Of a stretch of DNA of 64,000 nt, positions 9,992 through 59,159 are shown piece after piece. Both the position numbers and the translations under genes were made by a program. Location: assembly GCA_030295235.1 (NCBI GenBank), contig AP026123.1:2170001-2234000 (forward strand), read 5' to 3'. The notes under the pieces are model-generated. The model was not told the DNA's origin, ran no database searches, and was given only the letters and a program-made list of their open reading frames with translations. This DNA comes from Fistulifera solaris (taxonomy: Eukaryota). Each line of letters begins with the position of its first letter. Positions within the stretch are counted from its first letter, which is position 1.

Positions 9992-10055
9992 CGCTTCCTC
10001 TGCTTCAAGTGACCATAAAGCTCCGCACTTTATAACAACTACTTCGTTCGACGAA

Positions 10056-11328
10056 ATGGCTGACGCTAACGCCGAACAACGCCAACCAAAACCTCGCTGC
10101 TCCCGTAGCAGTAGCCTTTGCTCTAAGCCCGGCTTGAGCACCCACCATGTCATCGACTTCTCTACTCGCTGAAGGATCTCGCCTCTACGAAATGGCGACC
10201 AAGCAGATTGGAGATGAACGATTCGACTGCGATCCCGGTCGCATGCGCTCTCCTTCATCGAAGGACTTAGCATCCGTGCTAGCAACTTTGGTTGGGGGCC
10301 GATCTTCAACATCCCCGACGATATCGAAGCCATCGAGCCTGTCCAGAACACCACCAACCTCCTCTCCAACTACGGAGACATTACTTTGGAGCACATTCAA
10401 GCTCACGCACGCACATACATCGGTACCCAGACCCGTGCAGCGCCAAGACTCCTACATGGCAGCCAACTGCCTCATTTCCTCTCTAAGCCCAGCCGCCATC
10501 GATCGCATCACGATCTGGCGGGACCAGTACACCTTTGATGGTATCCCCAGCGGGCCTTGCCTGTTCAAAGTCATCATCCGTGAGACTTACATTGACACAA
10601 ATGCAACGGTCACGCATTCGCACGCAGCTCTCCAGTTTGGACCAGTACTTACCTAAGATTCAGCACAACATCACCAAGATGAACCAGCAAGTTAAACAGC
10701 TATTGGAAGGCTTGGCAGCGCGAGGAGAAACCACAAACGATCTTCTTGGCGAATCTCTTTAAGGGTTACAAGGCAGCCTCCGATCGCACCTTTGTCAACT
10801 ACATCCTGAAGAAAGAAGAAGATTACCACGAAGGTCTTCCGATGACACCGGATCACCTCATGAACCTAGCAGATAACAAGTACAAGACCTTGGTACAACT
10901 TTCTCTGTGGAACGCGCCTTCGGAAGAAGAAAAGATTCTCGCATTGGAGGCAAAACTCCAAAAGTTGGAAAGCAAAAGAAGACCGAAAACAAGCCAAAGC
11001 ATCAAGCCAAAAGCAAACCCCAGCGCAACAGAAACACTCCCAAGCCAGACTGGATGTCGGTGCCTCCAAAGGACGACGAACCCAAGCAGAAAACAGTTGA
11101 GGGAAGCGAGTACTTCTGGTGCGAAAAGCATAACTCATGGGGCAAACACAAGACGGTTGATTGTCGCCAAGCCAACATCCGCAGACCGGGAGTCTCCAAA
11201 CCCGGGGCGAAGAAAGAGCGACTCGTCAAAGCGCTAGCTGCACTCCTCAATGACAGCGACAGCGATGAGGACGACAACGTAGATGAGTATTCGGACGCGA
11301 AGTGACAACGGCAAGCGACAGTGAATGA
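10056..11328 (+). CDS. gag: Retrotransposon Gag (frameshifted in this assembly)
   Basis: ATG at 10056, followed by FALSP, GPCLFKVIIRE, NLFKGYKAASD, the knuckle WCEKHNSWGKHKTVDC and an acidic tail. The stop is at 11303-11305 as read, or at 11326-11328 after correcting two single-A insertions. Confidence 0.8.
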
Positions 11329-14300
11329 CTTACCAAGTCTATCTGGCGGTACCTCAGCTTCAGCTGGGACTGGCTTCTTGCCTGCACCGCAACCCTGATC
11401 TACTGCTTGTTCTTTGACCACGTTAATGACATTGCGACTCGCTACATTCCTAAACGACTTCGAAAGGAAACCATTAGTAAGCGATTGAAAACACTTGGTC
11501 AACGGGTCGGCAGTCCAATTCAGACTTACCTGGTCCGCATTCACACAGTATGGATACGAAATTCCACGACCCGAACGGTCCTTCACAAGAGGCGAAAAGC
11601 AGCAAGGCAGGCACTCTACTTTTCTCATACACCACTCATTCGATTCCGCAATCCAATAGCCAGATGGTGGAGACAATGGAAACTGCGTCAAAGGAGATAT
11701 GTGTTAATGATGACAGCGATGTGTTACAGTGCAAACGCGGTCCCACAAGTACTTACCAAGACTTTTGATACCGATTCAGTTCCAATTGGTGTCGACAATA
11801 GATGCTCAGCGTGCATCTCCCATGTCGCGACGGACTTTGTTGGAAAACTACAGGAGACCAACTTGATTATCAAGGCTTTGGCGGTAACCGCACCAGCAAT
11901 GTGATGAAAGGCACTCTGAAATGGTCATGGGAAAATGATGAGGGCAAGATGACATCATTCACGATTCCAAACTCATACTACGTACCAGACGGCAAAGTTC
12001 GACTTCTATCACCGCAACATTGGGCAAAATACACCGGAAACAAACTCTCTGGATGTGATACCACGAGCAAACATGCGATTCTGTATTGGGGCAGCAACAA
12101 GAAAACAATTCCGATTGATCCACGCTCAAACGTTGCAACGTTTTACTCCGCCCCCTGGCTGCCGCGAATTTCAAAACCTTCTGCTTCGAAGCATCGATTC
12201 CTGACGATGAAGACGACAATCCGCTTTGTTTCGATGCAAACACAGTCGACACAACACCTTCAGAGGGAGCGAGCGCAGATTCAGAGGGAGCTGAACCATT
12301 TCGCAGCCGCACAGTTGACTTCGAGTTCGACGGCAATCAACAACAACACAAACCGGTCATACAGGAAAGTGACACAACAACAAGTCAAACAGTTCCAGCA
12401 GCCGAATTGCTCACTTACCATCGTCTTTATGGTCATGCGCCGATGGAGAAGCTTCAGGAATTGGCGAAGCAAGGAGTTATTCCACGCCGACTTGCAACGT
12501 GTCCGACACCGGTGTGCACCGCCCTGTTTTTACGGAAAAGCAACAAAGCGTCAGTGGCGAACGAAACCAGCTAAACAAAGCAAAACCCTTCACAAGCCTA
12601 CTCACCCCGGCGAAGTTGTTGCTGTGGATCAAATGGTATCACCCACGCCCTGGCCTCATTGCGCAGCTCACAGGAATCTTGACGACAAAACGCTATTTGT
12701 ACTAGCCACCGTCTTCGCCGACCTTTATTCCAGCTTGAGTTATGTTCACCTGCAAAAGACACAAAGTGCGAGTGAGACCTTGGAAGCAAAACACGCTTTT
12801 GAACAATACGCTCGAAATTGTGGAGTCGACAAGATCAAACACTATCATGCCGACAATGGAATTTTCAATTCGAACACTTGGGTCAACGATTGCGTAACAA
12901 ACGGTCAGGGACTTTCCTTTGCAGGAGTTGGAGCACATCATCAAAATGGCAAAGCTGAACGCATAGGACAATTGCAAGAACTCACTCGAGCGATGCTGAT
13001 CGATGCACAACACAAGTGGCCGCAAGCCATCACAACTCACCTGTGGCCTTATGCTTTGCGCGCATGGCAAACGATTCCATCAACCACATGCCAAACATGA
13101 AGCACCCTGAGCGCCGTACTCCTTATCAACTCTTCGCCAACACGGATATTCATTCGAATCCAATTCATTGGAAACCATTCGGTTGCCCAGTATTTGTTCT
13201 TGACGCCAGCGCTTCAAGGAGGAAAAAGTCGGATATTTCACAAATGGCGCTCTGCGCTCACATCTCGGAATTTATTTGGGACGTTCTCCAGTACACAGCC
13301 GTTCTGTCGCCCTGGTACTGAACCCAGACACAGGACTCGTCAGTCCCCAGTTTCACGTCAAATTTGATTCGAAATTCCAAACTGTTCCGGACCTTGCGAA
13401 AACATGTTTGTGGCAACTCAAAGCCGGTTTTATTGCCGCTCCAAGCGCAAATCCTCAACAATCCACGCCTACATTGTCGGATACACCTACTACTACACCC
13501 GCCGACCTCTCTCCGTTACCGATGCCGCTGCCGACCGCACCACCTGATGACAATGTTCCGTCCACCGATCGTCAACCTGAACCACTTTCCTCTCCATCGC
13601 CACCACAATCTCAGAGGGAGAGACGCAGCACTCGCCAACGACGTCCCGTTACTCGATTAATAGAGATCATGATCGCAATGTTCGCTAGTGAACTCAGTCA
13701 ATCATCGGCCGACATCAAAGGGGAACTTTTGCTTACGAATCTCTTCAAACCGCCTCAGCAAAACTCAATCCACCGGATCCATTCTATGTTTTCAAAACGA
13801 GCGCCGACCCCGATTCAATGTATTTGCATCAAGCTCGCAAACAACCCGATTGGCCGGAGTTTTCCAAAGGCATGGACGCCGAAATCGAGGATCAAATGGC
13901 AAATGGAAATTTCTCATTGTTTCCAAGGAGTCAAGTTCCAGAGGGAGCAACGATTCTACCAACAGTATGGCAACTTCGCCGCAAACGAGACATTATGACA
14001 CCTTGAAGTCAAGAAGTGGAAAGCGACTGACTATTGATGGGTCACGGATGAAATATGGTCGCTGACTATGAATTGACCTACTCTCCGGTTGCTAATTGGA
14101 CTTCAATCCGCTTGTTACTAGCAATGGTGATCATACATGGTTGGCATACGAAGCAACTCGATTATGTTCAGGCATTTCCTCAGGCTTCGCGCGACAAAGA
14201 AATTTATCTGTCCATTCCGAAAGGATATACAATACACGGAGCATCCCCGGACGATTATGTTCTGAAAGTCCACAAGAATGTTTATGGAGCAAAGGATGCA

Positions 14301-15414
14301 AGTCGAACATGGTTCCTTTATTTGCGAAAGTAACTATTTGAGATCGGTTTCAAGCAATCGGAATACGACGAATGTGTGTTTTACTACAAGAGCACGATGT
14401 ATGTTCTATATACCGACGACAGTATTCTTGGAGGTCCTAATGAAAAGGAAATTGAGGAAATTATTGAAAAGATGAAACAGATCAAACTAGACATTACAGT
14501 TGAGGGAGATTTATCGGATTTTCTGGGAGTTAATATCAACAGGATCGGTGAATCAACAATTGAATTGAAACAGCCACAACTCATCGACCGATAATCAAAG
14601 ACATGAAATTCGACCAGAAGGAAGTTAAAACAAAGGATATTCCAATGGCATCATCGAAGCTACTTTCGCAGCATCCCAAATCGCCGCCATTTGACAAAAG
14701 TTTTCATTACACTTCAGTCATCGGAAAAATGAACTACCTGACGCGAGGATCCAGGCCAGACATCGCCCTATGCGGTACATCAATGCGCACGCTTTGCATC
14801 AAACCCAAGGAAAGAACATGGAGATGCAATGAGATGGCTTACAAAGTATCTGATAGGGACAAGGGACAAAGGAATGATTCTGCACCCAGACGTCTCTAGA
14901 AGCTTGGAAGTTCATGTCGACGCCGATTTCGCAGGCAATTGGGATCCAGAGATCGCTTTTGAGGACCTAAACACAGCTCGCCTCCAGACACGGATTTTTC
15001 ATCACCTATGCCGGAGTATTGTTGCATCACAAGAGTCAACTTCAGACAGAGATTGCATTGAGTTCCACCGAGCTTAATTCACCGGATTGAGCTACGCACT
15101 CAGAGATGCAATTCCTATCATGAACACTTTGAAGGAGATGCAATCACTCGGATTTGATGTGAAAGAGTGGAGGCCAAAAGTCCATTGCAAAGTATTTGAG
15201 GACAACTCGGGAGCTCTGGAAATCGCAAAAGTTCCGAAGGCTCGACCAAGGACGAAGCATTTGAATGTCAAACTGCACCATTTTCGGTCATACGTTGACA
15301 GCGGAGATATAACAATCCACAAAATCGATACTCGAACAAGTTGCGGATATTCTAACGAAACCACTCACATTTGATCTCTTTGCCAAACATCGGAAGGCAA
15401 TTCTCGGATGGTGA
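11329..15414 (+). CDS. pol: Retrotransposon Pol (protease, integrase, reverse transcriptase, RNase H); multiple frameshifts
   Basis: PR: IGVDNRCS. IN: HH-CC region, VAVDQM, YHADNGIF, QNGKAE. RT: DYVQAFPQA, YTDDSI. RH: VHVDADFAG, VFEDNSGA, RTKH. Ends ILGW-stop at 15414. Confidence 0.9.
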
Positions 15415-15434
15415 GATCGCAGTTCGAGAGGGAG

Positions 15435-15802
15435 TGTTGAATAACCAGTCACGCACGTGTCTACAATAAACGGAAAGACATGTGCACTACATATTACATG
15501 ATACTGAAAACGAGAAGCGAACAGCAATCTACCTAATCCCGAATCCTCGTTATTCAAAGAACTAACAGCTGCCGAAGGAACCTAAACTATTACTGACAAA
15601 GAACAATGCCAGCAGCTTCTGCATATTCTACATGAATCAAATGAGAACAATGAAGAGACAAACAAGAATTCAAATCAATAGGATAACTTCATTTACTAGC
15701 TCATAATTTTAACAAGCAATCCGTTTGCAGCAATCCGTTTGCACCAAGTTAATTTTGTCAAGCCCAATCCATAGACGGCTCCGGCACCTGTGGATTTCAA
15801 GA
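15435..15802 (+). repeat. 3' LTR
   Basis: Direct repeat of 9624-9991, preceded by the polypurine tract. Confidence 0.95.
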
Positions 15803-16670: not shown

Positions 16671-17830
16671 TTGTAAATTATTTGATCTGAAGTATGGGTG
16701 CCGTGCCCGGTTCGTTCGAAAAGATATAGGAGTGTACATGCTCTTCAAATCACAGATCAGGCTATGTAGCAGTTTTGAGCCTTGCTCTTCTTACGAGCCG
16801 TCATAAGAAGACTAGGCAGTAACCTGCACTAAGATTCGGTTTCCTTTCACACAAAGAATGGCAAAATAGTGAGAAATAGACTGCGTCTTACACAAAAAGA
16901 CCAGTCGAGAACTGTCGTAGGTCATTCCAGGACCATCATGGCTAGAGAAAGCAAGCAAGAAGTCCAACTATATTGACACTTCAGATATTCTAGCAAGCGT
17001 TGTGACCGATCTCAACACGAATATAGAAGCGGAGACCGGAGATACGACTTGCTGGTCCGAATCAATCTTTTTCTTTGCTCCAACTCACCTTTATATCGTC
17101 GAGCGTCGATGCTTGATGAATCATCTAGAAACCGGAAGCTGTCTTTTAGGATCACAAATAAGCGAAACAGAGAAAAAGATCAGAAACCTTTAGCCATTGA
17201 ATATTGATAAAATGTGGAAGATCAATCCAGGACCACGTTGCTATGGACACCTAGCACGGAGTCCCCCTTTAGTGATCTTCCGAAAATTGTCACTCTTGCA
17301 AGATTTAACTATGAACCAGTCTTTACACGGAAACGTAAAGACAGGAGATTCCGCTTGCTTATAGGAGAGTGAACGAAACGTACCTCGATCGCGCCGGGTC
17401 GAGGCCGTTTCCGCCTTCACAAAATATCATTCTCGTCTCATTGTGAAATCAGTTCTCTGGTTAGCATATATGACAAGTTTGCTTGTCAAATCATCGAAAA
17501 AGATGGTAAGATCGTCAAGACGAAATCGTCAACGGCATTTTTGTGTCGACGCGAAAAGATTTTCATCGCGTCTTTTTGTGCGGTTCCGTGTAAGCGCGTG
17601 TGACGGACAAACGAGACTAGAGGTCGATCTTGCCTTGCTTGTTGCTTGTTGCAAAGAGCAATTGCTCTTTGGCTTGTTGCGCTGGATCACACCTCTAGCC
17701 TAGACGATAAGTGCTAATCCTGTAATGCAAATAAACTGAAAAGGAGTAAGCCGCAAACACAACATATAGAATGTCATACTAAACAGGTTTTTGTTCTAAA
17801 TGTTAAGTTTCGAAAAGGCGCACGCCAGGA

Positions 17831-26375: not shown

Positions 26376-27200
26376 TGTAGCGAGTGCGGGTTAAGGCAGC
26401 TATCTTATCGAAAACAAGACCTTTCTCGCCCAGAGAGACTGTTATCGAATCAACGGATTTGACGTGTTAAATTCTCAGGGCAAGTCGATTGTACCTCATC
26501 GAGTGGCAAGACTGGGTCAACTTCTACAGGCTTTCCGATCAAGGCATGAGGAAGTAGCTCTTGCATCAATGAAGGAGTCTAACACTAGCAATTGAATTCC
26601 TGGTAAGCTCTCGCTCTAGCTGAAGCGCTTGAATGCGTAACGGCTGGAAACGTCTAAACTACAAAAAAAGGTATAGTAATTTCAACTTCAAGTCACGAGT
26701 GAGGAGGAAATAGGAAAACGCGACTGAAACTGTGAAAGAATGCTCGTCCTCGATCGCGATGAGAAAAGAAAAAAAGCACCACAAAACGCCTAGACTATGC
26801 AATTATTCTTTCATAAAAATTCTTGTTGAGCTCAAAACGCATCGGGTTCGTTCGACAGCCATTCTTTTGCATCAGTTTGCTTAAAAGTTCGCCGGAATCT
26901 TTGAGCTTGTCTACATTGTGCACTGAAAGTGTGTAGGAGCGGGCTTTCGTAGGAGCAAGAAACATCATTCATCGAATCAAGCGCGCTGGTCCCAGAATGC
27001 GGAGAAGGATCAATTGCTTGCGACTAGGGACTTGTTTGTATCATTCATTTGTAACGAACTTTGATCGATTATCTCATTCCGATGAGCTCTAAGCAGACGG
27101 CAAACGTGGAGCCTCGGAAATCACGACGTGTGTCAGCGGAAACGATTCCGTTGGTCACTCCCGCTGCAGGTTCACCCAGCAACGAGGGAGAGCGTCAAAA

Positions 27201-31920: not shown

Positions 31921-32482
31921 AATAACGACCAACACTAACGTGGTTGAATACAAAAAAAAATAAAAGCCTTAGTTTTCATTGACACTAGTGCGGGGTCTTT
32001 TTTGGGATGTGGGCAGGCCTTAGAGGCTTAGAGGACTTGAGGCTACAGTAAAGGCTAAGGCTAGTCTACTACTACCTACTACGTACTTTTTACGAACATA
32101 AACATACTACGGAGTACTCCGTACGATTTTTTGATACGACCCATACCAGTATGGCTCCAAAGCCCAAAGGACAAGGCTTCCCTACTCTCTATAATCGCAA
32201 CTTGGCAGTCTCTCTAGCCAAATGGCAAACGGGCTACGGGCTTTGCTCTTGCTGTTTTGCGTTTTTAGCTTTTCATAAATTTTTGGCGTCCGGTCTTCGT
32301 CTTTACGTTAAAAAAGAATACTGTACCTGGTAAGATGAAAAGTTGGTTGCGTTGCTGGTCCCAAGTCCCAAGTCCCAAACTGCAAACTTCGTCCAAGATT
32401 TCCAAAGTCCCAAGCCCGCAAACCGCATACGTATTAGTAGGCAATAAATACGTAGTTAAAATTTAAAATAGTAAAAAGGTTA

Positions 32483-32842
32483 CAGTCTAGTCGCTATAAC
32501 CGGGATAATATTAACCGGGATGTTCGGTATAACCGGGATGAATTCAGGGCGTGCACCCCATTTATCCTGAACCTTAAATCAATAACTAATATCTGTTAAC
32601 TTATCGTAACAACGAGACTGTTTGATCATCAAATATCCACCCAAGCATCATCTAAGTATCTAAATACGCTATAATCAGGCTTAAAAAGGTCACTTTGGTT
32701 CTTCCTAAGCCGGAGTTGACCTTAAACTGACGGGTTGTATGGGGCTCTAACGAGGGACAGACGGGTCGTTATAACCGGGATGGTCTATAACCGGGATAGA
32801 TCCTCGTCTCGCACCCCCGTCCCACTTATACCGACTAGACTG
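32483..32842. mobile_element. 360-bp non-autonomous Tc1/mariner(pogo)-type MITE
   Basis: Terminal inverted repeats CAGTCTAGTCGCTATAA and TTATACCGACTAGACTG (1 mismatch), flanked by TA at 32481-32482 and 32843-32844; internal TAACCGGGAT x5. Confidence 0.85.
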
Positions 32843-33460
32843 TACTCCACCTTTATCCTTTATCCTTTATCTGTCATCCGTCGTCAAGGGTCAATAAGGG
32901 TCAACCGCGAAACGGGAACGCTTTTCTGGCAAGTGACAATAGGGCTTTGTTCTTCATCCTTTGCTCTTTTGCACAAATACGGACAAATTCGAAGTCAAAC
33001 TTTAAGAGCGTACCTGGTACCTGGTAACGGACTCCATACTCCATACTCCATCCGCGACCTATGCCCACGCCCAATGCGCAATGCCCAATTGTCAATTGTC
33101 CATGAGACACCTGTTCGATAGGGTACATGTTACATCTACAGTTCTGTATACTGGTTACATTGATTCGGTGCCTGCTTTTTTTGCTATGGGTTTGTACTTT
33201 GTACACTAAGTTAATAAGCTCGCAAGGCGCAGTGTGATGTGATTGCTTGTAAACTGTGACCAGGCCCAACGGCCCCATGCCGCCACGCCACCACGAAAAA
33301 CCGAAAAAGTGCAAATTTCCCCGTCCATTCCGATTCCGCCCCATTCCGCTGTCAACGCTAAAGTTGTCACACTTTTTTCAGCGCCACTAGCCGCCGAACC
33401 AATTTTGTGATCTTCCATAGACCAATTCAATTTTTATAGAAACAAAAAGACAAAACCAGC

Positions 33461-36400
33461 ATGATTGAAGACAGTGATCACTCGTGGAGCGTCGACTGCG
33501 GCGAGTCGTCGGATGGTGATATTCGCTCTCACGGTACCGATACCCTTGAAAAGGAGAGGGCCGAAGAAGCTGCTGTCGCCGAACTGACTCGTCGTGAGAC
33601 GAGAGGCGTGCAAATGTGGAGAGCTTTCACGTTACTTACTCTAGTTGCCGTATCTGTGGCGGTGTCGACCATCACTTACCGCCTGTTGCAAAATCAGGAC
33701 GTTGAAGAGTTCCAAGACAGCGTAAGTATCCCTTCAGTCCATTAGCGTCGCCATTGCCGACTCCTGTCACCACAGTATTCTCACTTGATCCATGCAGTAC
33801 GTATACTTCGCATCAGCAATCCAGAATGCTATCGAAACACACATTGAAGACGTCTTTAGTGCAGGCGAACTGGTTTCAGTGCAAGTCACCAAGGCGTCGA
33901 TCGAAAAGAATGAAAGTTTCCCGTTCGTCACTTTAGACTTGTTTGAAATCATCGGCAGCCAAGCCAGGAAGCTGTCAGGTGTTGACGAAATCATATGGAG
34001 TCCCATGGTTGCAGCAGAGGACTACGATGCGTGGACGATTTACTCAACAGAGAACATTGGTTGGTATAACGCGTCGATAGGACTATACGTTCCCGAATCG
34101 GAAGATTCCGAGGACTTGGGAAACGAAGAAGAAGATGAGGGCGAAGAAGAGGAAGAAGATGATCGCAAGCTTGAAGGGTACGATTTCTCTGATACCACTT
34201 ACAGTATTTCCAGTCCAGGCGAAGACCAAAATGCTGGGCCTGGTCCGTGGGCGCCCGCGTGGCAAGTATCTCCTCCACCGCCCGGATCACACATCATCAA
34301 TATTGATATGTATGCTTATGGAACGAAAATGGTGGAGGAAGCAGTTGATGAATTGCGTATGGGATTAATGACGGAAGTGATTGCTACCCCCGGCGCAGAG
34401 AACGTACCTCCGCGCTGCGTAGTAGTTGAGCCGGTCTTCGAGCATTTGCTTGACGATTTAACGGCTCCGATCGTGGGCCACATCTACAGCACGTTTTCTT
34501 GGGATTCGTATTTGGTTGGTTTGCTCCCCGAAGGTGTCTCTGGGATCAATGTATTTTTGATGAACACCTGTGGTCAAGCATTCACTTACGCCATCTCTGG
34601 AAAATCGGTACGTCTCGAAGTGGATCCATCGTACAGGCGCTGGTGTATCAGACCAAATCTAAGCACTAACTCCATTGCACCTTTTAAGGTCGAATTCGTT
34701 GGTAACGGTGATATGCACGATGCCCGTTACAATCACATGGAAATTGTTATTCCTTTCTATGATGATGAGGCGGACGACCAAGGAGATATCGATCAAATTG
34801 AAGGGCATTGTGTTTATGATCTACACATCTATCCACCTTGGGCTTTGCCGAACAATACAATACTTCAAACCCACTAAAGGCAACCACAATGCTAGCGTTT
34901 GCGTTTGCATTCATGATAACGGCGTTCATCATGTTCGATACTTTCGTCGTTCGAAGAAACCGCAAACTGTTGATTGCAATGACCCGAACAAACGCGATTG
35001 TGTCGTCGTTGTTTCCCTCCACCGTGCGCGACCGCATCTTCGCCCAGGCCAAACACGAGAACGAGGAAAAGAAGGCGCTGAACGAAAAGAGTCGTTTGAA
35101 GACGTTTCTATCGGATGGAAACGATCGGGACAACGAGATGGGCGAAGGAAACGATGAATACATGTACAAGACAAAACCCATTGCTGATCTTTTCCCAGAA
35201 ACCACAATTTTATTCGCAGGTAGGTACTCAATGTGAGCAGCGTATCATGAAACGAGCAGCACGAGCCTATTCAGTCGAGTCGCTAACAAAACACCTCCTC
35301 CTGTACCTCTCGCAATAACAGATTTGGCAGGTTTCACAGCATGGAGTTCCATGTGAGAGCCGACGCAAGTGTTCATTCTGTTGGAAACTATTTACAAGGC
35401 CATGGATGACATTGCCAAGGCTCGTCGAGTGTTCAAGGTCGAGACTGTGGGCGATTGTTATGTTGCCGTAACCGGTCTACCTGATCCTCGAAAGGACCAC
35501 GCCGTGGCCATGTGTCGTTTCGCAATAGACTGCGTTCAAAAGATGGATGTATTGACACGAAAACTGGAAGTGATTCTCGGTCCCGATACAACAGATCTCA
35601 AGATGCGAGTCGGTTTGCACAGCGGCCCTGTGACGGCCGGTGTTCTCCGTGGTGAGCGTTCGCGGTTCCAGCTGTTTGGTGACACTATGAACACAGCTAG
35701 CCGGATGGAATCCAATGGACTGCCTGGAAAAATCCATATTTCCCAAGAAACTGCGCGGCTTTTAATCGCGGCGGGCAAGGAACATTGGGTGATTCCGCGC
35801 GAGGAGAAAAATTATTGCAAAAGGAAAAGGAGAACTGCAAACATACTCGCTTGTCACCACAAAAGCCTCGAACCATACGCAAAGTGAAACAGCGTCGAGC
35901 GAAACCTCCGGCGAAGTAGGCGGAAGTAATATGCTTGCTGGTGCAGCTTACGATATTGTTATTCCGGAGATAGACGAGAAAACAGATCGACTTGTAAAGT
36001 GGAACGTGGAAGTCCTTGCAGCGCTGCTCAAGAAAGTGATTGCCCGCCGCAAAGATGTCGTGAATACCATAGAATCTGCCCCCAAAACAAATGCTTCCAA
36101 ATTTACATCAACGCCGTTGGAAGAAGTTCAGGAAATCATCCATTTGCCGGTCTTCAATAGAGGAAATGGGGCCGACACGACAGAAGAAGATCTCGGCGAT
36201 GTCGTCATAGAGCAGCTAAGAGAGTATGTTTCTGCGATAGCATCCATGTATCGCAACAACCCGTTCCACAACTTCGAACACGCGTCACACGTCACCATGT
36301 CCGTGGTCAAACTTCTCTCTCGTATCGTGGCACCCGATGTCGACGCGGTCAACAATGATTTGGAATCAACCTTGCACGACTACACATATGGAATCACATC

Positions 36401-37136
36401 CGATCCACTCACGCAGTTTGCTTGCGTACTTTCTGCTCTTATTCATGATGTTGACCACCCCGGTGTACCAAACACACAGTTGGCCGTTGAGAATCCGCAG
36501 CTCGCCAAGTTTTACAGTAGTAAGAGTATTGCAGAACAGAACTCGGTCGACTTGTCGTGGGAGTTGCTTCAAGACAGCACCTTCAATGACTTAAGACTAG
36601 CCATCTGTCCCACGGAGCACGACCGAATCAGATTCCGTCGGCTTGTGGTAAACTCAGTCATGGCGACGGATATCATGGACAAGGACTTGAAAGCTCTCCG
36701 AAATAAACGCTGGGAAAAAGCATTTTCTGGAAAGAATCAAGAGGAGTCAATGAAAGACGCTGTCGATCGTAAAGCGACCATTGTCATCGAGCACTTAATC
36801 CAAGCTTCTGACGTCTCGCACACGATGCAGCACTGGCATATTTACACGAAATGGAACCAGCGATTGTTCGAGGAGATGTACAGTGCTTACATTCAAGGTC
36901 GATCCACAACCGATCCTTCTGAGAACTGGTACAAGGGCGAGATCGGATTCTTCGACTTCTACATCATTCCATTGGCAAAGAAGCTGCGCGAGTGCGGTGT
37001 CTTTGGTGTTTCCAGCGATGAATACTTGAATTATGCCGAGAAAAATCGGCAAGAATGGGAAGCCCGAGGCAGGGAAGTTGTTGCCGGCATGGTGGAGCGG
37101 CGCACAAGAAGTTTGGCGCGAAGTTGGACTAATTAG
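33461..37136 (+). CDS. Receptor-type guanylate/adenylate cyclase-phosphodiesterase fusion, copy 1 (possible pseudogene)
   Basis: Architecture: TM, CHASE-like domain, TM, cyclase (FADLAGFT, KVETVGDCY, LFGDTMNTASRMES), class I PDE (PFHNFEH, IHDVDH). Three introns. In-frame TGA at 35354-35356. Confidence 0.85.
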
Positions 37137-38536: not shown

Positions 38537-40199
38537 ACTCGTTTTTTATTCATCCGTAATAGAAGCAACAGTCTCTTCCGCTCCCCTCTAACTGTTTCCT
38601 ATGGATGAAATAATGTTCTGTCTCTTTCAGTGACGCTGCTGCAATAATCAGTACACTGACCCGTCAGAAACGGCGAATAAACAAGATGCCGACTTCTCTT
38701 CGATTGGAACGGGCGTGGCAGTAGTCGGCGAATTGCAAATACGCTGTTAACTTAGCGATACACAAGATGCGGACGAAGATTGCATTACAAACGTTTGGTA
38801 GACGAACAACAGGTGTTATTGTTGTTGTTGCATGCAATCACCAGTTTGATGTCGCACGACATGCCACTGCGACATCACCATAGGAGAGATTCAAAGTTTT
38901 GCCAAGTTTTCAACAGCTTTTTGTTTGAAAACCTTTTGGCCCGCGCTTCCACCGTTTGTTTTTGACTCGACAAAGAGCCGACGGATAGTTGAACTTACGT
39001 GAAGGGAAGAAGATGAAAATTATATTTCCGTGCCATGTCCACTGCGGAGTGACTGCTCAGTCACGACGCGCTCGTAGTCTTCGCATTCCGCTAGCCGGAT
39101 GCCGAAATGCTTCCAGCTTTCGATATTCGCAAGCGCCCACGAAGTAAATAGTTGTCTTCTCTAGCTACCAGGAAATGTATTAGCTTGGTTGCATAACGAC
39201 ATTAATTGATGGTATCTGCAGTATTGTTGGTCAAATATTGAGATCCTAGAGAGAGGCGTCATAATCAAGAAAATTTCAACCTGATGATGGCTTCCATTAG
39301 CGAAAGGAACAAATTACAGTATCTTGGTTGCTTTTAAGGAACTTCACTAATCATTGATGATCACTCATCAATGGTATCTTTAGTATCCGTACTCCACCAT
39401 AAGTTGGTTGACAGTTGACAGCAGCAAGTCACACCTCTCCACAATCCCAATCCCGAAAACTCCTTAAAATCGCACTTCGCCGCCGCAACCCCGTCCCTCC
39501 GCACCCGTTCCCAAGTAGAAGCTAGAGAGACTCTAGAGACTCTAGAGACTCTAGAGGGTCTAAAGTCTAAAGAGAGATTCTAATGAGTCAGAGAGAGTCG
39601 AGCAGTCCATCAAGAACAAAGGCCGAAGACCGAGGACGAGGACCCTCGTCTCTCTCTAGAAAAAGTCATCGGCGATCGGCGTCGAAAAAATAATACGGAG
39701 TAGCAAGTAGCACAAACTCTAAACACGTGGAACGTGGAATAGTTTACGGAGTATTTTAGTGTTTTCGGTTTTTTCGGGCGTCTTAACATCGAAGTTCTAA
39801 AAGTTCTAAATTACGGCTTGTGACGTTATTTGTGACTTGTGACTTGTGACCATTAACCTATCTTCTGTCTGACGTCTGACGTCTGACATTCCGCCTAAGG
39901 CCTAAGCTACAAAAGGTTATAAAGCGCTCACGAAGGCCAAAGGCCCATGAGTTCATCAACCATAAACCATTAATCAATAACGCCCAAAGCAAAACGAAAA
40001 ACGGACATTTCCTTTGATTTACTACGACCCGGAACTACCTACTACCGTCTTTGTTCATTTTTTTTACTGGGTCGCGTGTCGCGTCTTCCTCTTTTACATC
40101 TCCGGTCTCCGCTCATCGTAAGGATTTTGTGGAACTACAAGAATAAAACAAAAACAGACCGGAATAAGAAAATTGCGTGCACAGACCAAGAAATAAGGA

Positions 40200-43100
40200 A
40201 TGACAACCGACGGCGATTACTCTTGGAGTGTCGATGGCGGCGCGTCATCGTCGGATGGTGAGAACCATCGTTCCTCTGCTATGGACTCTATTGAGGAAGA
40301 AAAGGCCGAAGAAGCTGCTATCGCGGAACTGACACGGCGCGAGACGAGAGGTGTGCAAATGTGGAGAATATTCACCCTACTCACCTTAGTTGCCGTGTCT
40401 GTGGCGGTGTCGATAACTACCTTTCTGCTTCTACGAAACAAGGACGTTGACGAGTTCAATGACAGTGTACGTTTGAATGCCTCGGTTACTCCATATCCTT
40501 TTATCTGCGTTGACATGGATGCTAACTCGTCTGAATATGTTTCAGTACACATTCTTTGCAGCAACAATCCGAAATTCGGTTGAATCCCACGTTCACGATG
40601 TTTTCAGTTCCGGTAAAATGGTTGCAGGACAGATAACCAAAGCAGCGACCGAGAAGGGCGAGAAATTTCCCTTTGTGACAGTTGATTTATTTGAAGTCGT
40701 AAGCAGACAAGCAAGGGAAATGTCAGGTGTGGAAGAAATGATGTGGTGTCCCATAGTCGATGTCGGCGAGTATGATGCATGGACGAACTACTCCACTGAA
40801 AATTTGGGCTGGCTAGACAAATCCATTGCACTTTACGCCATTGAACCTGGACACAGCATTATGGAGGGTGACTTTCAGCGCACCGATACCAACTATTCGA
40901 TATCTAACCCTATTCCTGGCACACCTATTAGCCAAGGCCCTTGGTCTCCAATTTGGCAAATCTCTCCACCACCGACCACCTCATACGTCATCAACGTCGA
41001 TATGTTAGCGTACGAAACAAAAATATTGGTTGAAGCCATTGGAACATTCCGAACAGGCTTGATGTCCAAAGTCATTGCAACGCCGGGTCAAGAGAATGTA
41101 CCTCCACGTTGCGTCGTAGTGCACCCGATTTTCGAGAGTTTGTTCCACAAGGATACCGCAGAGATCGTGGGTCACGTCTACAGTATGTTTCTTTGGGAAG
41201 CGTACCTCGTAAATCTGCTCCCAGAAGGTGTTTCCGGAATAACCGCTGTTTTAACGAATAACTGTGGTCAGTCTTTCACATATAGTTTGAACGGTACTTC
41301 GGTAAGCACCCTGACATGCACTGCGATCGTTGAAGTCCAGAACCGGCTCTTACCTCCTTTCTTTCCCCTCCTCCCCGCCTTCAGGCCACATTTATTGGTT
41401 ACGGTGACAAGCATGATACTCGGTATGATCACATGGAAACAATCGTACCTTTTTACGAGATGGAACGCGATCTCACCAAGGAAGAGCTAACTGCTGTGAA
41501 AGGCCATTGCTTATTTGACCTCCACGTTTACCCTACCAGGGAGTTCGAAAAACAGTACGATTCTTCCAATCCAGTGCAAGCAACCAGTATGCTTGCGTTT
41601 GCCTTCTTATTTATGATAGCAGCGTTCCTTATGTTCGATTGCTTCGTCATTCGACGAAACCGCAAATTAATAATGGCCATGAGCCGAACAAACGCGATTG
41701 TGTCATCAATGTTTCCATCCAACGTGCGCGATCGCATCTTTGCCCAGGCCAAACACGAGAACGAAAAAAAGAAGGCCCTCAATGATAAGAGTCGACTCAA
41801 AACGTTTCTGTCCGATGGATACGAAGGAAGCAACGAAATAGGTGACGGTGGCGATGGAAATGATGAGGTCATGTACAAGACCAAGCCCATCGCTGACCTA
41901 TTTCCAGAAACCACAGTCTTATTCGCAGGTAAGAAACCAAACCGCGACAAGAACGGGTTTCACGGTGTTTGCCGAGTCCCTAACAACTATTCCCACTCTT
42001 GATAATGCTAGATTTGGCAGGATTCACAGCTTGGAGTTCCATGCGTGAGCCGACGCAAGTGTTCATTCTCTTAGAGACCATCTACAAGGCCATGGATGAC
42101 ATTGCCAAAGCACGTCGAGTGTTCAAGGTCGAGACCGTGGGTGATTGTTATGTTGCCGTTACCGGTCTACCCGATCCGCGAAAGGACCACGCCGTCGCCA
42201 TGTGTCGTTTCGCACTCGACTGCGTCCAAAAAATGGATGTCTTGACAAGAAAGCTGGAGGTGATTCTCGGTCCCGATACAACAGATCTCAAGATGCGCGT
42301 TGGTTTGCACAGCGGTCCAGTGACAGCTGGTGTGCTACGCGGTGAGCGTTCGCGGTTCCAGCTGTTCGGTGACACTATGAACACAGCCAGCAGAATGGAA
42401 TCCAATGGACTACCCGGAAAGATTCACATCTCCCAAGAAACGGCACGGCTTTTGATCGCTGCGGGTAAAGAGCATTGGGTAACTCCGCGAGGAGAAAGTT
42501 GTGGCGAAGGGTAAAGGAGAGTTGCAAACGTACTGGCTGGTTACAACAAAAGCCTCGAACCATACACGCAGTGACACCGCTTCAAGTGACAACTCGGGCG
42601 ATCACGACGGAGCGTCGGTGACCGACTTGGCTTTCGACAACAATTTACCAGTGACGGACGAAAAAACCGAACGCCTTGTGCAGTGGAACGTTGAAGTCCT
42701 CGCAGCTCTGCTTAAAAAAGTGATCGCTCGCCGTAAAGATATTGTGAACGCCAAGCAATCGAACCGCCCGGCAAGTGCTTCCAAAGTAACGACGACGCCG
42801 TTGGAAGAAGTGCAAGAGATTATTCGCATGCCGGTGTTTAAAAGGGGTAAAGGAATCGAAATAAAAGAAGAAGACCTCAGCAATGCCGTTCTCGAGCAAC
42901 TCAGAGAATACGTTTCTGCAATTGCCTCCATGTATCGCAACAACCCGTTCCACAACTTCGAGCACGCTTCCCATGTCACCATGTCTGTAGTCAAACTTCT
43001 CTCTCGTATCGTGGCGCCTGACGTCGATGTGGTAAACAGCGACTTGGAGTCCACCTTGCACGATTACACATACGGCATCACATCGGACCCGCTCACGCAG

Positions 43101-43811
43101 TTTGCGTGTGTGTTTTCGGCTCTGATTCACGATGTCGATCATTCAGGTGTACCGAATACACAACTCGCCATCGAGAATCCCCAGCTTGCTAATTATTACA
43201 AAGAAAAGAGTATCGCGGAACAGAATTCGGTCGATTTGTCGTGGGAGTTGCTTCAAGATAGCAATTTCAAAGATTTGAGACTCGCCCTCTGCCCCACCGA
43301 CTATGACCGAATCAGGTTTCGCCAGCTGGTTGTTAACTCCGTCATGGCCACGGATATCATGGATAAAGATTTGAAGAATCTTCGAAACAAACGCTGGGAA
43401 ATAGCTTTTGACAGGAAGAACGTGGAGGAATCCTCAACCGATGCTGTCGATCGCAAGGCCACTATTGTCATCGAGCACTTGATTCAAGCATCGGATGTCT
43501 CGCACACGATGCAGCACTGGCATATTTACAGAAAGTGGAACCAAAGGTTGTTCGAGGAGATGTATAGCGCCTACATTCAGGGCCGCTCGGCGACCGATCC
43601 GTCCGACAACTGGTACAAAGGAGAGATTGGCTTTTTTGACTTTTATATCATTCCCCTGGCAAAGAAGCTGCGCGAGTGCGGTGTATTCGGTGTTTCGAGT
43701 GATGAATATCTGAACTATGCCGAGAAGAATCGTCAGGAATGGGAAGCAAGAGGCATGGAAGTCGTCGCCGGCATGATAGAAACGGCGCACAAAAAGTTCG
43801 GCACGAAGTAG
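40200..43811 (+). CDS. Receptor-type cyclase-phosphodiesterase fusion, copy 2
   Basis: Same architecture and three intron positions as copy 1; one apparent 2-nt deletion near 42490. Confidence 0.92.
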
Positions 43812-46552
43812 GAAATTCTCCTTGTGAACATTTATACCAGTTAAGCATTTACTAATAGTCAAAATCGTTGTTGCAATTGAATAGTACAAGTACCAGGGGT
43901 AATAGCTCATTCTCATTCAAATCATCATCGCATTCGGCGGACCTTTCGCTTCGTCGATCGAGCAGTAGGTTTTTGACATGGTGTTTTTGGCGTCCGTCAG
44001 GCGCACCTCGCAATACACTTCGACCTTTTATTTTCTTCGTCATTATATTTGGCTGCAATAACCAAGCACTACTCTAACTTTATGATGCCTTGATCGACTT
44101 TACGTTTCCCGATTTCTTCAGCAACAACGGACGAACAGCTGCATAGAATGTTGGCGACAGGGTCCTCACAATCGCCGGCTTCCGGTAGGAGTCGGCGGTT
44201 ATTCGATGAAGTCGTAGTAGTCATGGCGATCGAAATTGTGACGTTCAAACAATGTCAAGTGGTTGGCAAACGGAAGCATCGCTGTCCGTCGCGAAGCACG
44301 TCAAATTCGGGTTGTGTGTTTGTGTGTTTGTTACGCTGAGTCCGGCTATTTCGACCGGTATAATGGGACATTTGCTGCTCTTGACTGAACTCGTCCTTTG
44401 AATTTCACGTAGCCCGAGGCGCTGCGCTCTACCGATTTACAGGTTAAGATTTGTTTAATGACGATACCGATCATGTGGCGGTCCTGGCCGTTCTCTCTGT
44501 GCTAAAGCAAGCATTCTTTGAGAGCTTATTTGGGTTGTTGCTACGCCTCGTTGACCTTGCCTCCTATTCCCAAACGAATGAATGAGCAAGCATTGGTTCA
44601 CATCGTTCAACTGAGTAATACAGACGCGACTTGGACTTAAAATTATCATCGACGAATCCGCAACTCGCTTGCACCTGGTCTCGGGGTGCAGACTGACTCT
44701 CAAACCGGCCTCTTTCTTGGGTGTCCCGTGCACTCCAACCAATCTTTGAGAGACGCCGGACTATGAAAGACAACTTACGTAATAAGCGGGGTTTCATCTC
44801 ACACACTCTGACCGAATCAATATACATGTGCCGACGTAAGGAGAAAGTAGCTAGAAACACACTGAACGGAGGCTGAATGATTGACGTCGGCAGAATGGAA
44901 GTCGAGTGGACTATTATACTCTCCTTAGAGTTCTACTTGCCCTTAGCTAAAGGTATTTATTTCAAAGGTGAGTCCGCAGTAAAATTTCTCCCCAGATCAT
45001 GAACTAATAAGAGTGGCCTTGAATGCAACTTTTAATTTTTTTGCATCAGTAGTCTAGTAGAAATACGTAACGGGCTGAATCATCCGCATTCCGTGTTTTG
45101 GAATCCCTCTCTAGTCTCTAGAGAATCTTGAATAAGTGATTTTTGGCTTGTCAAATACGTGACAGACAGCGTGTGCGTGTGAAAGCTTTTAGCTTTTTAG
45201 TTCCCCATGTCATGCACGTCTCATGTCTCATTGGCACGTTTGCACGTTTGGCTTCCGACTTCTGAGCAATCTGCAATAAGGACGTATAAAAATGTACGGA
45301 GGATCTGCAATTGTGAATGTACTCATTCTCCGTTACTGTAGGCAGTAAAGGGTGAAGGGTGAAAGAGTAAGAAGTAAGAAGAATTAAGGATGTGGGAAGA
45401 GGCAAATCGCGGTTGGCGGTTTGAAGTTTCAGATTGCGATTACAAGTAGTAGACTAGTTACAAGTTACAAGTAGACCTATCTAGCCGGAGCCAAAAGCCA
45501 AAAGCCAAAAGTCAAACCAAAGAAATTTATTTCGCGTCTCATGCCGTCGTGTCTCATGCCGTCGTGATCGACGATCAACAATCGACAAAGGAGCCTGGAG
45601 CAGCGCAAGAGTTGAGTGAGAGAGAAGCAAGCATAGTCTAGACTAGAGCTCGCGCTAGCCTTATTTTTTGCTAGGCTCACGGGTCACGCGCACTGCGCAC
45701 TTATCACTTATACCAGGTAGGGACAGTCAGACGTCAGACTTTGTCCTCCATCCATCCTCCGCCATCCGTTATTCGTCTAAAGTCTAAAGCACTATTTCTG
45801 CTATTGCCCTAACATGCCTACAGTACTTGTAAGTAGGGAACAGTGAAAAGGACGAATGACTGTATTGGCCGAAATACCAAATACCAAATAATACCACAAG
45901 TCATTGGCCCCTACGACGTACGACGTAGCATTTACTACGGCAATGATGTCTAATGTCTAATGTCGTCAATATCTGTGATCTGTGCGTACTTTTACACTTT
46001 ACACTTGGGGCTGTGGCTATTGTTTTTCGGTTTTTCGGACACAAAAGTCCAAACCCGTAAAACACGTTGCGCGCAGCGTTTAGCGTGTAGCGCAGTACGT
46101 AGTAGCGCATAGCGCATCATGACTCATGACTCAGACCGCAGACAGCGCATGCAATATGCAATCCCCAATCCCCAATGCGAACGCGTAATAAGTAATAAGT
46201 AACAGCGACCACAAAAGTATTGTACGTACTAGTCTCTACTATCTATGTAATACATATTACATATCGGTAGTAAAAAACGGAAGGCCCTTAGCCCTTAGGC
46301 GACTTAGGCCGAACTTATTTCCTCGTAAAACCTACTCCGAGATGACTGTAGTCTGTAGTTATAAGTACTCGTATGACTCGTATCTCGTATTCATTTTCCG
46401 CCCTTCCCACGAGCCCAGGAGAAAAGCTACCAAAGAGGGGCCGCGGACAAAAGGCGAAATAAACCGAAACAACCAACAGGAATAAGCGACAAGTCCGATT
46501 GCAAAATCATTATCATAAATAAAAATATTTGCGTGCACACGAGAAAGAAAGA

Positions 46553-49500
46553 ATGATGAAAGACGAAGACGATCAATCTTGGAGCGTCGATGGTGGCGAA
46601 TCGTCCGATGGTGAGAATCATCGTCCCTATGGAATGGACACCATCGAGGAAGAAAAGGCCGAAGAAGCTGCTGTCGCCGAGCTGACACGTCGAGAGACGA
46701 GGGGAGTGCAAATGTGGAGAATTTTCACCATGCTCACCTTAGTGGCCGTGTCTGTGGCGGTTTCGACCATCACTTTCCGTCTCCTTCAAGATCAGGATGT
46801 CGACGAATTCAAAGACAGTGTGAGTACATCTCGTCGGTCATACCACTTTCGCTCGTCGCGTCCGACTTCTAACTCTCCTCGGCATGCTTCAGTATACCTT
46901 CTTCGCAGCAGCCATCCGAAACTCTGTTGAATCCCACGTTCGCGACATATTCAGTGCAGGTGAAATGGTTGCAGGACAGGTTACAAAAGCGGCGACGGAG
47001 AAGGGCGAGAAATTTCCCTTTGTGACGGTCAGTTTATTCGAAGTCGTTGGCAGACAAGCGAGGGAGATGTCTGGTGTAAATGAAATGATGTGGAGTCCGA
47101 TGGTGGGCAGTGACCAGTACGATGCATGGACGAACTACTCCGCTGAAAATATCGACTGGATGGAGGAGTCCATTGCACTTTACGCCATTGAGCCTGGTCA
47201 CAATCGGACGCAAGAAGACTATATGCTCTTCGATACCGATTTTTCGATATCTGGCCAAATCCCCGGGACACCTGTCGGTCCAGGCCCATGGTCGCCTATT
47301 TGGCAGATATCTCCACCTCCGAACAACACGTTTGTCATCAACATTGATATGTTGGCGTTTGGAACTCAAATCTTGCATGATGCCGTTGAAATGTTCCGCA
47401 CTGCATTGATGTCTGAAGTCATCGCATCAACTGATTTAATGAAACCGCCAGAATGCGTCGTGGTCCACCCTGTTTATGAAAGCTTGTTCAACAAAGATAC
47501 CGCGAGAGATCGTGGGTCACGTCTACAGCTTGTTTCCTTGGGATGCATACCTAAAAATTTGCTTCCGGAAGGTGTTTCCGGAATCACCGCCGTTCTGAGG
47601 AACAGCTGTGGTCAGTCTTTCACCTATACTTTAGACGGTACTTCGGTAAGCATCTCGAGTTGCACTGCGAGCTGATTTTTGCGCCGACTCTTACCTCCTC
47701 TCTTCTTCTGCTCTTTCTTCAGGCCACATTCATCGGTTACGGCGACAAACATGACACTAACTACGATCACATGGAAACGATTGTCCCTTTTTACGATGTT
47801 GCCCATAGTTATGGCGAGAAAGATCTAAGTGTTGATAAGGGGCACTGCTTGTTTTACCTTCACGTCTATCCCACCAGGGAGTTTGAAGAAAAGTATGATT
47901 CTTCCAATCCAGTGCAAGCGACAACGATGCTTGTGTTTGCCTTTGCTTTCATGATAACAGCGTTCCTGATGTTCGATTGCTTCGTCATTCGAAGAAACCG
48001 CAAGTTGTTGATAGCCATGAGCCGAACAAATGCGATCGTGTCGTCTTTGTTTCCCTCCAATGTACGCGACCGTATTTTCGCCCAAGCCAAACAAGAAAAC
48101 GAAGAAAAGAAAGCCCTGAACGGGAAGAGTCGTCTGAAGACATTCTTGTCTGCTGGAACAGAGCAGGACAACGAAATGGGTGATGGTGGCGACGGGAACG
48201 AGGAATACATGTACAAGACAAAGCCAATTGCCGACCTTTTTCCAGAAACCACTATCTTATTCGCAGGTAGGTGCCGAATGCAAACAGAGTGACCAGACTA
48301 CATGCATTAATCCATTAAGTCAAGTTGCTCACACCGTTTTTCCTTCGTCAAACTCGCGAATTCCAGATTTGGCAGGATTCACAGCCTGGAGTTCCATGCG
48401 TGAGCCGACGCAAGTGTTCATTCTCTTAGAGACCATTTACAAGGCCATGGACGACATTGCCAAGGCTCGTCGAGTATTCAAGGTCGAGACCGTGGGTGAT
48501 TGTTATGTTGCCGTAACCGGTCTACCTGATCCTCGAAAGGACCACGCCGTCGCGATGTGTCGCTTCGCACTGGACTGCGTCCAAAAGATGGATGTATTGA
48601 CAAGAAAGTTGGAGGTGATTCTCGGTCCTGATACGACCGATCTCAAGATGCGCGTTGGTTTGCACAGCGGCCCTGTGACGGCTGGTGTTCTTCGTGGTGA
48701 GCGTTCGCGTTTCCAGCTGTTCGGCGACACCATGAACACAGCTAGCAGAATGGAATCAAATGGACTACCCGGAAAGATTCACATCTCGCAAGAAACTGCA
48801 AGGCTTTTGATCGCTGCGGGTAAAGAGCATTGGGTAACTCCGCGAGAGGAGAAAGTTGTGGCGAAGGGTAAAGGAGAGTTGCAAACGTACTGGCTGGTTA
48901 CAACAAAAGCCTCGAACCATACTCGCAGTGAAACCGCTTCCAGTGACAACTCTGGCGATCACGACGGAGCCTTGGTTGCTGATCTTCCTTTCGACAAAGC
49001 TTCGCCGGCAATGGACGAGAAAACCGATCGACTTGTTAAGTGGAACGTGGAAGTTCTTGCAGCTCTGCTCAAGAAAGTGATTGCTCGCCGTAAAGATATA
49101 GTAAATACCAAGCAGTCGGCCTGCGCGGCAAGTGTTTCCAAAGTAACGACAACACCGTTGGAAGAAGTGCAGGAGATTATTCGCATGCCGGTGTTCAAAC
49201 GGGGCAAAGGAACGGAAATGAAAGAAGAAGACCTCAGCAACGCCGTCGTGGAGCAGTTGAGGGAGTATGTTTCAGCGATTGCCTCCATGTATCGCAACAA
49301 CCCGTTCCACAACTTTGAGCACGCTTCCCATGTCACCATGTCCGTGGTCAAACTCCTCTCCCGTATCGTGGCGCCGGATGTTGACGCCGTCAACAGCGAC
49401 TTAGAGTCCACCTTGCACGATTACACATACGGTATCACTTCAGATCCGCTCACGCAGTTCGCTTGCGTGCTTTCGGCTTTGATTCACGATGTCGACCACC

Positions 49501-50174
49501 CAGGTGTGCCGAATACACAGTTAGCCGTTGAAAACCCCCAGCTCGCCAAGTTTTACAAGGACAAGAGTCTCGCGGAACAGAACTCGGTCGACTTGTCGTG
49601 GGAGTTGCTTCAAGACAGTAACTTCAACGATTTGAGACTCGCCATCTGCCCCACTGAATACGACCGAATCAGGTTCCGCCAGCTGGTTGTAAACTCTGTC
49701 ATGGCGACGGACATCATGGACAAGGATTTGAAGAATCTTCGAAACAAACGCTGGGAGAAGGCCTTTGCTGGGCAGAACCACGAGGAGTCGGTAAATGACG
49801 CTGTCGATCGTAAGGCCACTATTGTCATCGAGCACTTGATTCAAGCATCTGACGTCTCGCACACGATGCAGCACTGGCATATTTACACAAAATGGAACCA
49901 GCGACTATTCGAGGAGATGTACAGCGCTTACATCCAAGGTCGATCTGCAAATGATCCCTCTGAGAACTGGTATAAAGGAGAGATCGGATTCTTCGATTTT
50001 TACATCATTCCTTTGGCAAAGAAGCTGCGCGAGTGCGGTGTGTTCGGGGTTTCAAGTGATGAATACTTGAACTATGCCGAGAAAAATCGTCAGGAATGGG
50101 AAGCCCGAGGCATGGAAGTTGTTGCGAACATGATTGAAACGGCGCACAAGAAGTTCGGCACAAAGTCCGGCTAA
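46553..50174 (+). CDS. Receptor-type cyclase-phosphodiesterase fusion, copy 3
   Basis: Same architecture; cyclase and PDE lie in one open frame (48368-50174), which shows the fusion directly. Small indels near 47505-47550. Confidence 0.93.
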
Positions 50175-58638: not shown

Positions 58639-58719
58639 TTCGTAACGCCCAACTAGCAGCTGATTGACAGTCGTTTGAAAGTTTTATTGTTCGGTGAGTT
58701 GCCGTCGTTATTATTATTT

Positions 58720-59159
<440 letters not shown>

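Follow-up and report, generated by a model that had tools for sequence, protein, structure and literature searches.

What process has written dozens of unrelated 7-bp duplications into the DNA in front of three related genes of the diatom Fistulifera solaris? The genes lie on the plus strand of the window, the 64-kb stretch of contig AP026123.1 analysed here, and have their ATGs at 33461, 40200 and 46553. Proteins encoded nearby fall into a 90%-identity cluster with a named protein of this species. Copies 1 (33461..37136) and 2 (40200..43811) were assigned as cyclase-phosphodiesterase (cyclase-PDE) genes by Pfam match and gene structure. Copy 3 (46553..50174), which has an intron, encodes a membrane-anchored guanylate/adenylate cyclase-phosphodiesterase matching PF00211 and PF00233, and no 7-bp duplications lie inside it. 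The unstranded tract upstream of it (tract 3, 45108..46390) comprises 25 perfect 7-bp duplications, one of them a triple, together with six one-mismatch doublets and one 15-bp duplication, the starts falling 176-1445 bases upstream of the ATG. All 14 duplications listed in a preliminary description of this DNA are found where it placed them, some arrays reaching one base further to the left.

How narrow is the preference for seven bases? When counted by unit length against 300 dinucleotide shuffles, the interval 45100-46400 has the spike at 7 that the preliminary description led one to expect: 25 perfect primitive arrays, which take up 30% of the bases, against a mean of 0.10 and a maximum of 2 by chance. 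Unit lengths from 3 to 15 are represented in this interval by 23, 7, 1, 1, 25, 2, 0, 0, 0, 0, 0, 0 and 1 arrays, and its autocorrelation is 0.427 at lag 7 and 0.22-0.31 at the remaining lags from 1 to 22 (0.305 at lag 14). When runs of at least seven matches are counted in all three upstream tracts, minus a miniature element (MITE) in the first, there are 43 at lag 7 and 4, 3, 5 and 3 at lags 6, 8, 9 and 10.

Similar tracts had been noted before copies 1 and 2, and both hold nine perfect arrays. Tract 1 (32069..33204, unstranded) includes three triples, with the MITE in between, and its arrays start 270-1392 bases upstream of copy 1; 0.04 arrays are expected by chance in the interval 32000-33250. 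Tract 2 (39407..40084, unstranded) includes two triples and starts 129-793 bases upstream of copy 2, with 0.05 expected in 39350-40150. The tracts are non-homologous by blastn, as had been claimed, save for approximately the last 40 bases before the ATGs of copies 2 and 3. Across the full window there are 55 perfect 7-bp arrays against 2.9 expected (15 shuffles); 43 of these 55 fall in the three tracts and none in the three cyclase genes, and the tract arrays occupy 5' non-coding DNA, their starts lying 129-1445 bases 5' of the cyclase-PDE ATGs. The half of the spacer between copies 2 and 3 that follows the copy 2 stop (43812-45099) contains zero arrays. Two other spacers had been described as apparently free of duplications, which is true of 26400-27000, with none, and not of 16700-17800, which holds one array of a low-complexity unit. 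A weaker signal is found 5' of an HSF gene (3 in 1480 bases) and of an NAD-binding gene (2 in 375), and the short housekeeping promoters of the window (Rpb2, ribosomal proteins) contain zero 7-bp arrays.

Are the arrays members of a repeat family? The units of the tracts are unrelated and are present in two to three copies each, alike in length and not in sequence as first described; they are not one satellite or microsatellite unit in many copies. A long repeat family was looked for in the tract and none was found. The best reading is that the duplications are mutational scars rather than a repeat family. The three tracts also contain 17 one-mismatch 7-bp doublets where 2.6 are expected, and the process must therefore be old enough for copies to have decayed. 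Longer units occur in the tracts as well, namely a palindromic 9-bp unit in 3.4 copies (39526-39556) and the perfect 15-bp duplication (45536-45566).

Other duplications in the window are of a different kind. The cyclase domains of copies 2 and 3 (42011-42496 and 48366-48851) share 99% protein identity and their N-terminal parts 67-78%, which suggests gene conversion between the two copies. On the minus strand, 305-9750 is occupied by at least three diverged members of a tandem family, genes or their remnants of about 420-550 aa, that have no Pfam match. Two Ca2+:H+ antiporter paralogs are separated by a 164-bp direct duplication (88%) at 58706-59032, where there is also a 34-bp exact repeat.

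Could the tracts have been produced by sequencing or assembly? Small indel errors of assembly do occur elsewhere, at 1-3 gap letters per contig of a run here called X1. Against this, the X1 contig over 43501-46276 is identical to the window save for 3 gap letters, with 0 substitutions, though X1 may be the source of the assembly. A second contig, X2, comes from a wetland metagenome of a separate study; over 43724-46645 it differs from the window by 27 substitutions and 42 gap letters. A further run, X3, which may or may not be of RNA, gives no cover over the tract, and this speaks neither for nor against. From the length of this contig, the gap letters divide into 24 left out and 18 put in; therefore, clean deletions could deprive it of no more than 3 of the 25 duplications. 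Tract 3 is thus carried by independent DNA, and the same spike at 7 is present in unrelated assemblies. The artefact reading is already refuted by X2, and the probability that we would still give it is negligible. The gap load of X2 is high for a divergence of 0.9% and would fit a few 7-bp indels. Among the indels of 10 aligned pairs of up to 4 kb, a before/after pair for a 7-bp indel did not appear (0 cases). Orthologous Fistulifera DNA was not found among 79 metagenome loci or prokaryote genomes, and viral contigs gave one weak match (L080), which was left unused. Judging from single-base gaps relative to X1 and X2 at 31798, 34938-36521 and 42488, some of the frameshifts seen in a DUF2499 gene and in cyclase copies 1 and 2 seem to be due to errors of assembly.

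Is the process aimed at the cyclase-PDE signalling family, as was proposed at first? Among the best 120 of 2460 cyclase relatives, the species names, where given (most rows have none), are all those of raphid pennate diatoms: Fistulifera, Amphora, Mayamaea, Phaeodactylum, Seminavis and one incomplete 'Amphip'. The 79 metagenome loci around cyclase relatives are presumed to be from pennate diatoms on account of this family range, not by per-locus assignment. Unit counts were made on 72 non-redundant loci, with the near-duplicates L010, L013, L021, L033, L040, L045 and L054 dropped and the overlapping pair L035/L067 retained, and coding DNA was hidden by crudely masking ORFs of 360 bases from stop to stop, which takes some non-coding DNA along with it. 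The non-ORF DNA contains 54, 47, 11 and 5 arrays of lengths 6, 7, 8 and 9, where chance gives about 18.5, 4.8, 1.3 and 0.3; an excess at 7 is there, but it stands out less than in the window, where the same lengths number 8, 45, 4 and 2. One locus, L015, has two tandem cyclase genes, each preceded by a tract (8 and 3 arrays). In other loci, duplication clusters are also found 5' of unrelated genes: six arrays between a divergent amidotransferase gene and a gene of no known type (L001), five before an ABC transporter (L041), and four before two other genes (L020). In 37 of the 79 loci, the DNA upstream of cyclase-PDE genes carries 15 arrays in 22.2 kb (6 in 17.4 kb when L015 is set aside), and the remaining non-coding DNA carries 29 in 41.3 kb. 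Thus, specificity for cyclase genes, and with it the proposed aim at this family, is not supported.

The same counts bear on the idea that the doublets are selected cis-regulatory repeats, such as paired binding sites, of the cyclase promoters. This idea would account for the fact that 43 of the 55 window arrays lie 5' of three paralogs, and in Seminavis robusta the cGMP-synthesis family ranks with the most condition-responsive ones, according to the portion of PMC7335047 that was available. However, the units are unrelated, the paralogs share none of them except for one 7-mer in tracts 2 and 3, the units decay (the excess of one-mismatch doublets given above), and other lineages are without enrichment upstream of cyclases. 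Selection of paired sites is therefore a very improbable origin for the duplications.

What do the duplicated units have in common apart from their length? Of the 43 arrays, 23 have an unambiguous register, that is, no extra base matches on either side and there is no flanking microhomology. These units share a palindromic bias, nTnnnAn: T is at position 2 (T2) in 14 of 23, A at position 6 (A6) in 15, and both in 10. The null taken from the same tracts is 28% for T2, 29% for A6 and 8.3% for both (1.9 expected of 23), giving a P of 6e-6 for the combination. The best strand-symmetric class scores 29 of 46, which was matched in 0 of 3000 resamples, and this covers the search over positions. Both bases are present in 4 of 6, 2 of 6 and 4 of 11 units of the three tracts. 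Among the ambiguous arrays, an nTnnnAn register is available in 9 of 20 against 4.3 expected (P 0.014).

The motif was recognised post hoc in a set of 23 units, and it replicates modestly and to an extent that varies with the subset. Out of sample, in non-ORF units of the other presumed diatoms, T2 is found in 10, A6 in 14 and both in 7 of 27 (P 0.007 and 0.004). The clustered units in related loci give 8, 10 and 4 of 23, and all units there give 18, 22 and 7 of 59, which singly are not significant. Duplications of 6 bases, used as a control, lack the bias (42, 39 and 10 of 159), and among the unambiguous window events outside the tracts both bases occur in 0 of 8. A rule that units start with GT and end with AC was tried and dropped in favour of T2/A6, since it gave 7, 5 and both in 2 of 31.

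Do the two halves of the motif act together or apart? The unit split is 10 with both bases, 9 with one and 4 with neither. When a two-sided preference is set against a one-sided mixture, the likelihood ratio is about 15 in favour of preferences that act independently on the two strands. This matters for the view that the scars come from a one-strand error with an intrinsic 7-nt length, either by nick, strand displacement and flap ligation or by microhomology-mediated duplication and slippage. Such an error predicts few units with neither base and fewer with both than are observed, so the ratio of about 15 counts against it, and so do the 23 of 43 arrays without microhomology. We know of no one-strand pathway with one fixed length, and none was met in the literature searched. 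In its favour, yeast that has lost the flap endonuclease shows a 7-10-fold rise in tandem duplications, as stated in the available text of PMC13167724. The anatomy of the arrays also lends it something: arrays of 17-20 bases, with 3-6 extra matching bases, number 7 against 2.0 in a forward simulation on shuffled tracts (0 of 200 simulations reach this), and triples number 6 against 2.9 (P 0.08). The excess of long arrays and triples implies that part of the set arose when units were doubled again in register, through a new cut at a preferred site or through slippage. Microhomology or slippage therefore contributes to part of the arrays; microhomology-mediated duplication may account for part of the long ones and is unable to explain the 23 without arms. 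As the origin of the set as a whole, a one-strand error seems to us rather unlikely.

Might the duplications instead be true transposon footprints? On this account, a cut-and-paste family with a 7-bp target (P/Galileo/1360-like) inserts into 5' DNA and excises flush, so that both target copies remain; repeated insertion and excision had also been suggested in the preliminary description. The length and the T2/A6 bias agree with the targets of Galileo and 1360 as far as the available parts of the sources describe them, and the tracts do receive transposons, as is seen from the TA-flanked MITE in tract 1. TpA is at 0.99 of expectation in the tracts and at 0.56-0.68 in four control spacers, and quasi-palindromic TA-N5-TA words, such as TACC(A/T)GGTA and TACGGAGTA/TACTCCGTA, number 8 in the 3 kb of tracts against 2 in the other 61 kb. 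However, the 64-kb window and the 79 loci (490 kb) yielded no inverted-ended element flanked by a 7-bp duplication, nor a TE family with 7-bp target-site duplications, which the preliminary description had thought might exist. The inverted-repeat scan used an 8-nt exact seed and is relied on only for duplications of at least 5 bases; its sole two hits with a 7-bp duplication sit in a microsatellite-like word of L015, and its TA-flanked hits, at least 179, are mostly due to chance, the scan being too loose for them. There is no excess of copies at a constant spacer, and the few repeats at lags 8-12 have no spacer in common. P elements leave end residues on excision; residues of this type between target copies were looked for at lags 8-12 and not met. 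A clean doublet is also rare on known excision: about 90% of Muta1 excisions restore a single target copy, according to the accessible portion of PMC5225508. Insertion and excision stay among the candidate origins, with neither a resident 7-bp-target element nor element-end residues found, and we regard true footprints as a less likely source.

An even smaller chance attaches to footprints of hAT hairpin excision, in which 8-bp targets (nTnnnnAn) are trimmed to a net 7 bases. The hobo target NTNNNNAN, as given in the part of its source available, is similar. Hairpin chemistry would pair T2 with A7 or T1 with A6 and leave scars that are for the most part imperfect. Yet T2 with A7 occurs once, T1 with A6 five times and T2 with A6 ten times in 23 units, imperfect scars are few (9 runs of exactly 6 at lag 7, compared with 43 perfect arrays), and there are only 4 runs of at least 6 at lag 8. 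These counts largely refute the hairpin reading, which we consider highly improbable. Topoisomerase, also named at first as a possible cutter, is an improbable one, the stagger of type II enzymes being 4 nt.

The window does contain transposable elements of other types. The MITE in tract 1 (32483..32842, unstranded) is 360 bp long, TA-flanked, and has 25-nt terminal inverted repeats (88% complementary) starting CAGT; from the TA duplication and the end sequence we take it to be Tc1/mariner-like. It holds 0 of the 7-bp duplications against 3.7-5.2 expected (P 0.006-0.026). X1 and X2 carry a second version of it that is about 8% different, which may belong either to a dispersed family or to the other subgenome. 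TpA is undepleted in tracts 1 and 3 (observed/expected about 1.0) and is at 0.5-0.8 in most other spacers. The word TACC(A/T)GGTA saturates the region upstream of an L015 cyclase gene (L015 6600-7950), and this word and TACGGAGTA/TACTCCGTA may be either mariner-type footprints or a shared cis-element. A general origin of the scars from mariner footprints was considered and rejected: TA-N5-TA is found 59 times against 16.9, but after the duplications are masked TA recurs at lag 7 in 13 of 102 cases, which is like other lags. A degenerate copia-like LTR element lies at about 9624-15802, with LTRs that are 99% identical over 376 bases and a 14-bp tandem duplication in each LTR. Its target duplication is 6 bp, and its integrase therefore does not fit the 7-bp scars.

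Which enzyme, then, might write seven bases twice? A fixed duplication length is the product of transposases and LTR integrases, whose target motifs are palindromic. One example is element 1360, which has a 7-bp target duplication at 274 of 279 sites and the motif GTTNAAC or KTNBWAB (PMC3276498, available in part); another is Galileo, with the target GTANTAC (PMC4168063, likewise in part). Filling in both overhangs of a staggered break and rejoining the ends gives an exact tandem copy, according to the portion of PMC8355091 at hand. Here, a fixed length combined with a palindromic preference points to a protein of two-fold symmetry whose points of attack, one on each strand, lie a constant distance apart. 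We therefore think it probable that the scars were made by a 7-nt staggered cut of a transposase-like dimer, followed by fill-in and end joining, whether or not a transposon was inserted; the footprint account shares this staggered-cut core and is counted within that judgement. The spike at 7, the 23 of 43 arrays without microhomology and the two-sided palindromic bias all support the localised fixed-length staggered breaks with fill-in that the preliminary description had proposed. We infer the staggered cut, the enzyme class, the end joining and the role of accessibility.

The absence of a constant spacer and of a resident 7-bp-target element argues for no lasting insertion. Our leading, if still tentative, version is accordingly a staggered cut by a two-fold symmetric DDE-type enzyme, with fill-in and rejoining and no element inserted for good. 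It is slightly favoured over footprints because there is no 7-bp-flanked element, no shared spacer is seen, and clean doublets are unusual on excision. The enzyme would be of the DDE transposase/integrase type, either an active transposase acting abortively or a derivative kept by the host; none of the 136 ORFs scanned matches a DDE transposase family. It would bind accessible 5' non-coding DNA, with 5'-nTnnnAn-3' as the preferred site, and cut the two strands 7 nt apart, leaving no element behind. Both overhangs would be filled in and the ends rejoined, so that the 7 bases are written twice. The doubled site would again be a preferred target and also prone to slippage, giving rise to triples. 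Scars would last where the 5' DNA is long and tolerant, while selection would remove them from coding DNA. It is conceivable, though we would hold it to be on the speculative side, that the agent is a two-fold symmetric nuclease encoded by raphid pennate diatoms themselves, which may be a domesticated transposase and would break accessible 5' DNA with a 7-nt stagger, without any element taking part. Such a nuclease would be a standing promoter mutator, adding 0.2-0.6 events per substitution locally and speeding up the regulatory turnover of condition-responsive genes.

How fast would such a process be? With 43 perfect arrays in 2989 bases, each lost on a change in one of 14 bases, the local rate is at least 0.2 per substitution, and a steady-state model in which the ratio of one-mismatch to perfect arrays is 0.33 gives about 0.6; both figures are rough and depend on a simple decay model. 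For the divergence seen between the contigs, the model predicts about 2-7 gains. If the process does run at 0.2-0.6 of the substitution rate, it would be a main route of promoter evolution in major primary producers, and if a host nuclease is indeed a promoter mutator, the regulatory DNA of condition-responsive genes would turn over fast. The combination of a single length with a palindromic bias points to one enzyme that rewrites non-coding DNA, and its scars would form a fossil map of accessible DNA. The nTnnnAn bias provides a handle for the search for this enzyme and separates double-strand cutting from replication errors.

Do these duplications belong to any system already described? Heptamer simple-sequence repeats such as that of the Haemophilus hmw1A promoter (PMC8262952, seen in part) also have a 7-bp promoter unit, but there one unit is present in many copies and changes by slippage, whereas here dozens of unrelated units have two to three copies each. 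Microhomology-mediated tandem duplication, in the available sections of PMC13167724, likewise turns a single copy into a doublet, can expand and is depleted from coding DNA; however, it is defined by its arms, which 23 of 43 arrays here are without, and those sections describe no fixed 7-bp length. The staggered-break fill-in duplications of PMC8355091, to the extent that the source was accessible, are exact, adjacent and free of microhomology, with both overhangs filled, as read here. Their length varies with the distance between two nicks, in contrast to the one length, the sequence preference and the concentration in 5' non-coding DNA of the present set. There is also a likeness to the P-superfamily elements Galileo (PMC4168063) and 1360 (PMC3276498), which in the portions available have a fixed 7-bp target with palindromic T2 and A6, as here. 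In contrast to both, the copies in the diatom stand side by side, with neither an element nor end residues in the middle, and no such element or transposase was found in the window and loci; relative to Galileo, the bias is weaker and position 7 leans to T and not to C. Published descriptions of a 7-bp duplication signature were not met in the literature searched, which took in few subscription journals and no supplements, and the accessible part of bioRxiv 10.1101/2025.10.24.684338 has nothing on 7-bp duplications. P-type footprints, hAT footprints and microhomology-mediated duplication each fail to fit in one defining feature. The components, target-site duplication and the fill-in of staggered breaks, are known, and the signature in the 5' DNA of diatoms, with its single length and its palindromic bias, would be a variation on them. 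This locus contributes the nTnnnAn bias, a test of family specificity and an estimate of the rate.
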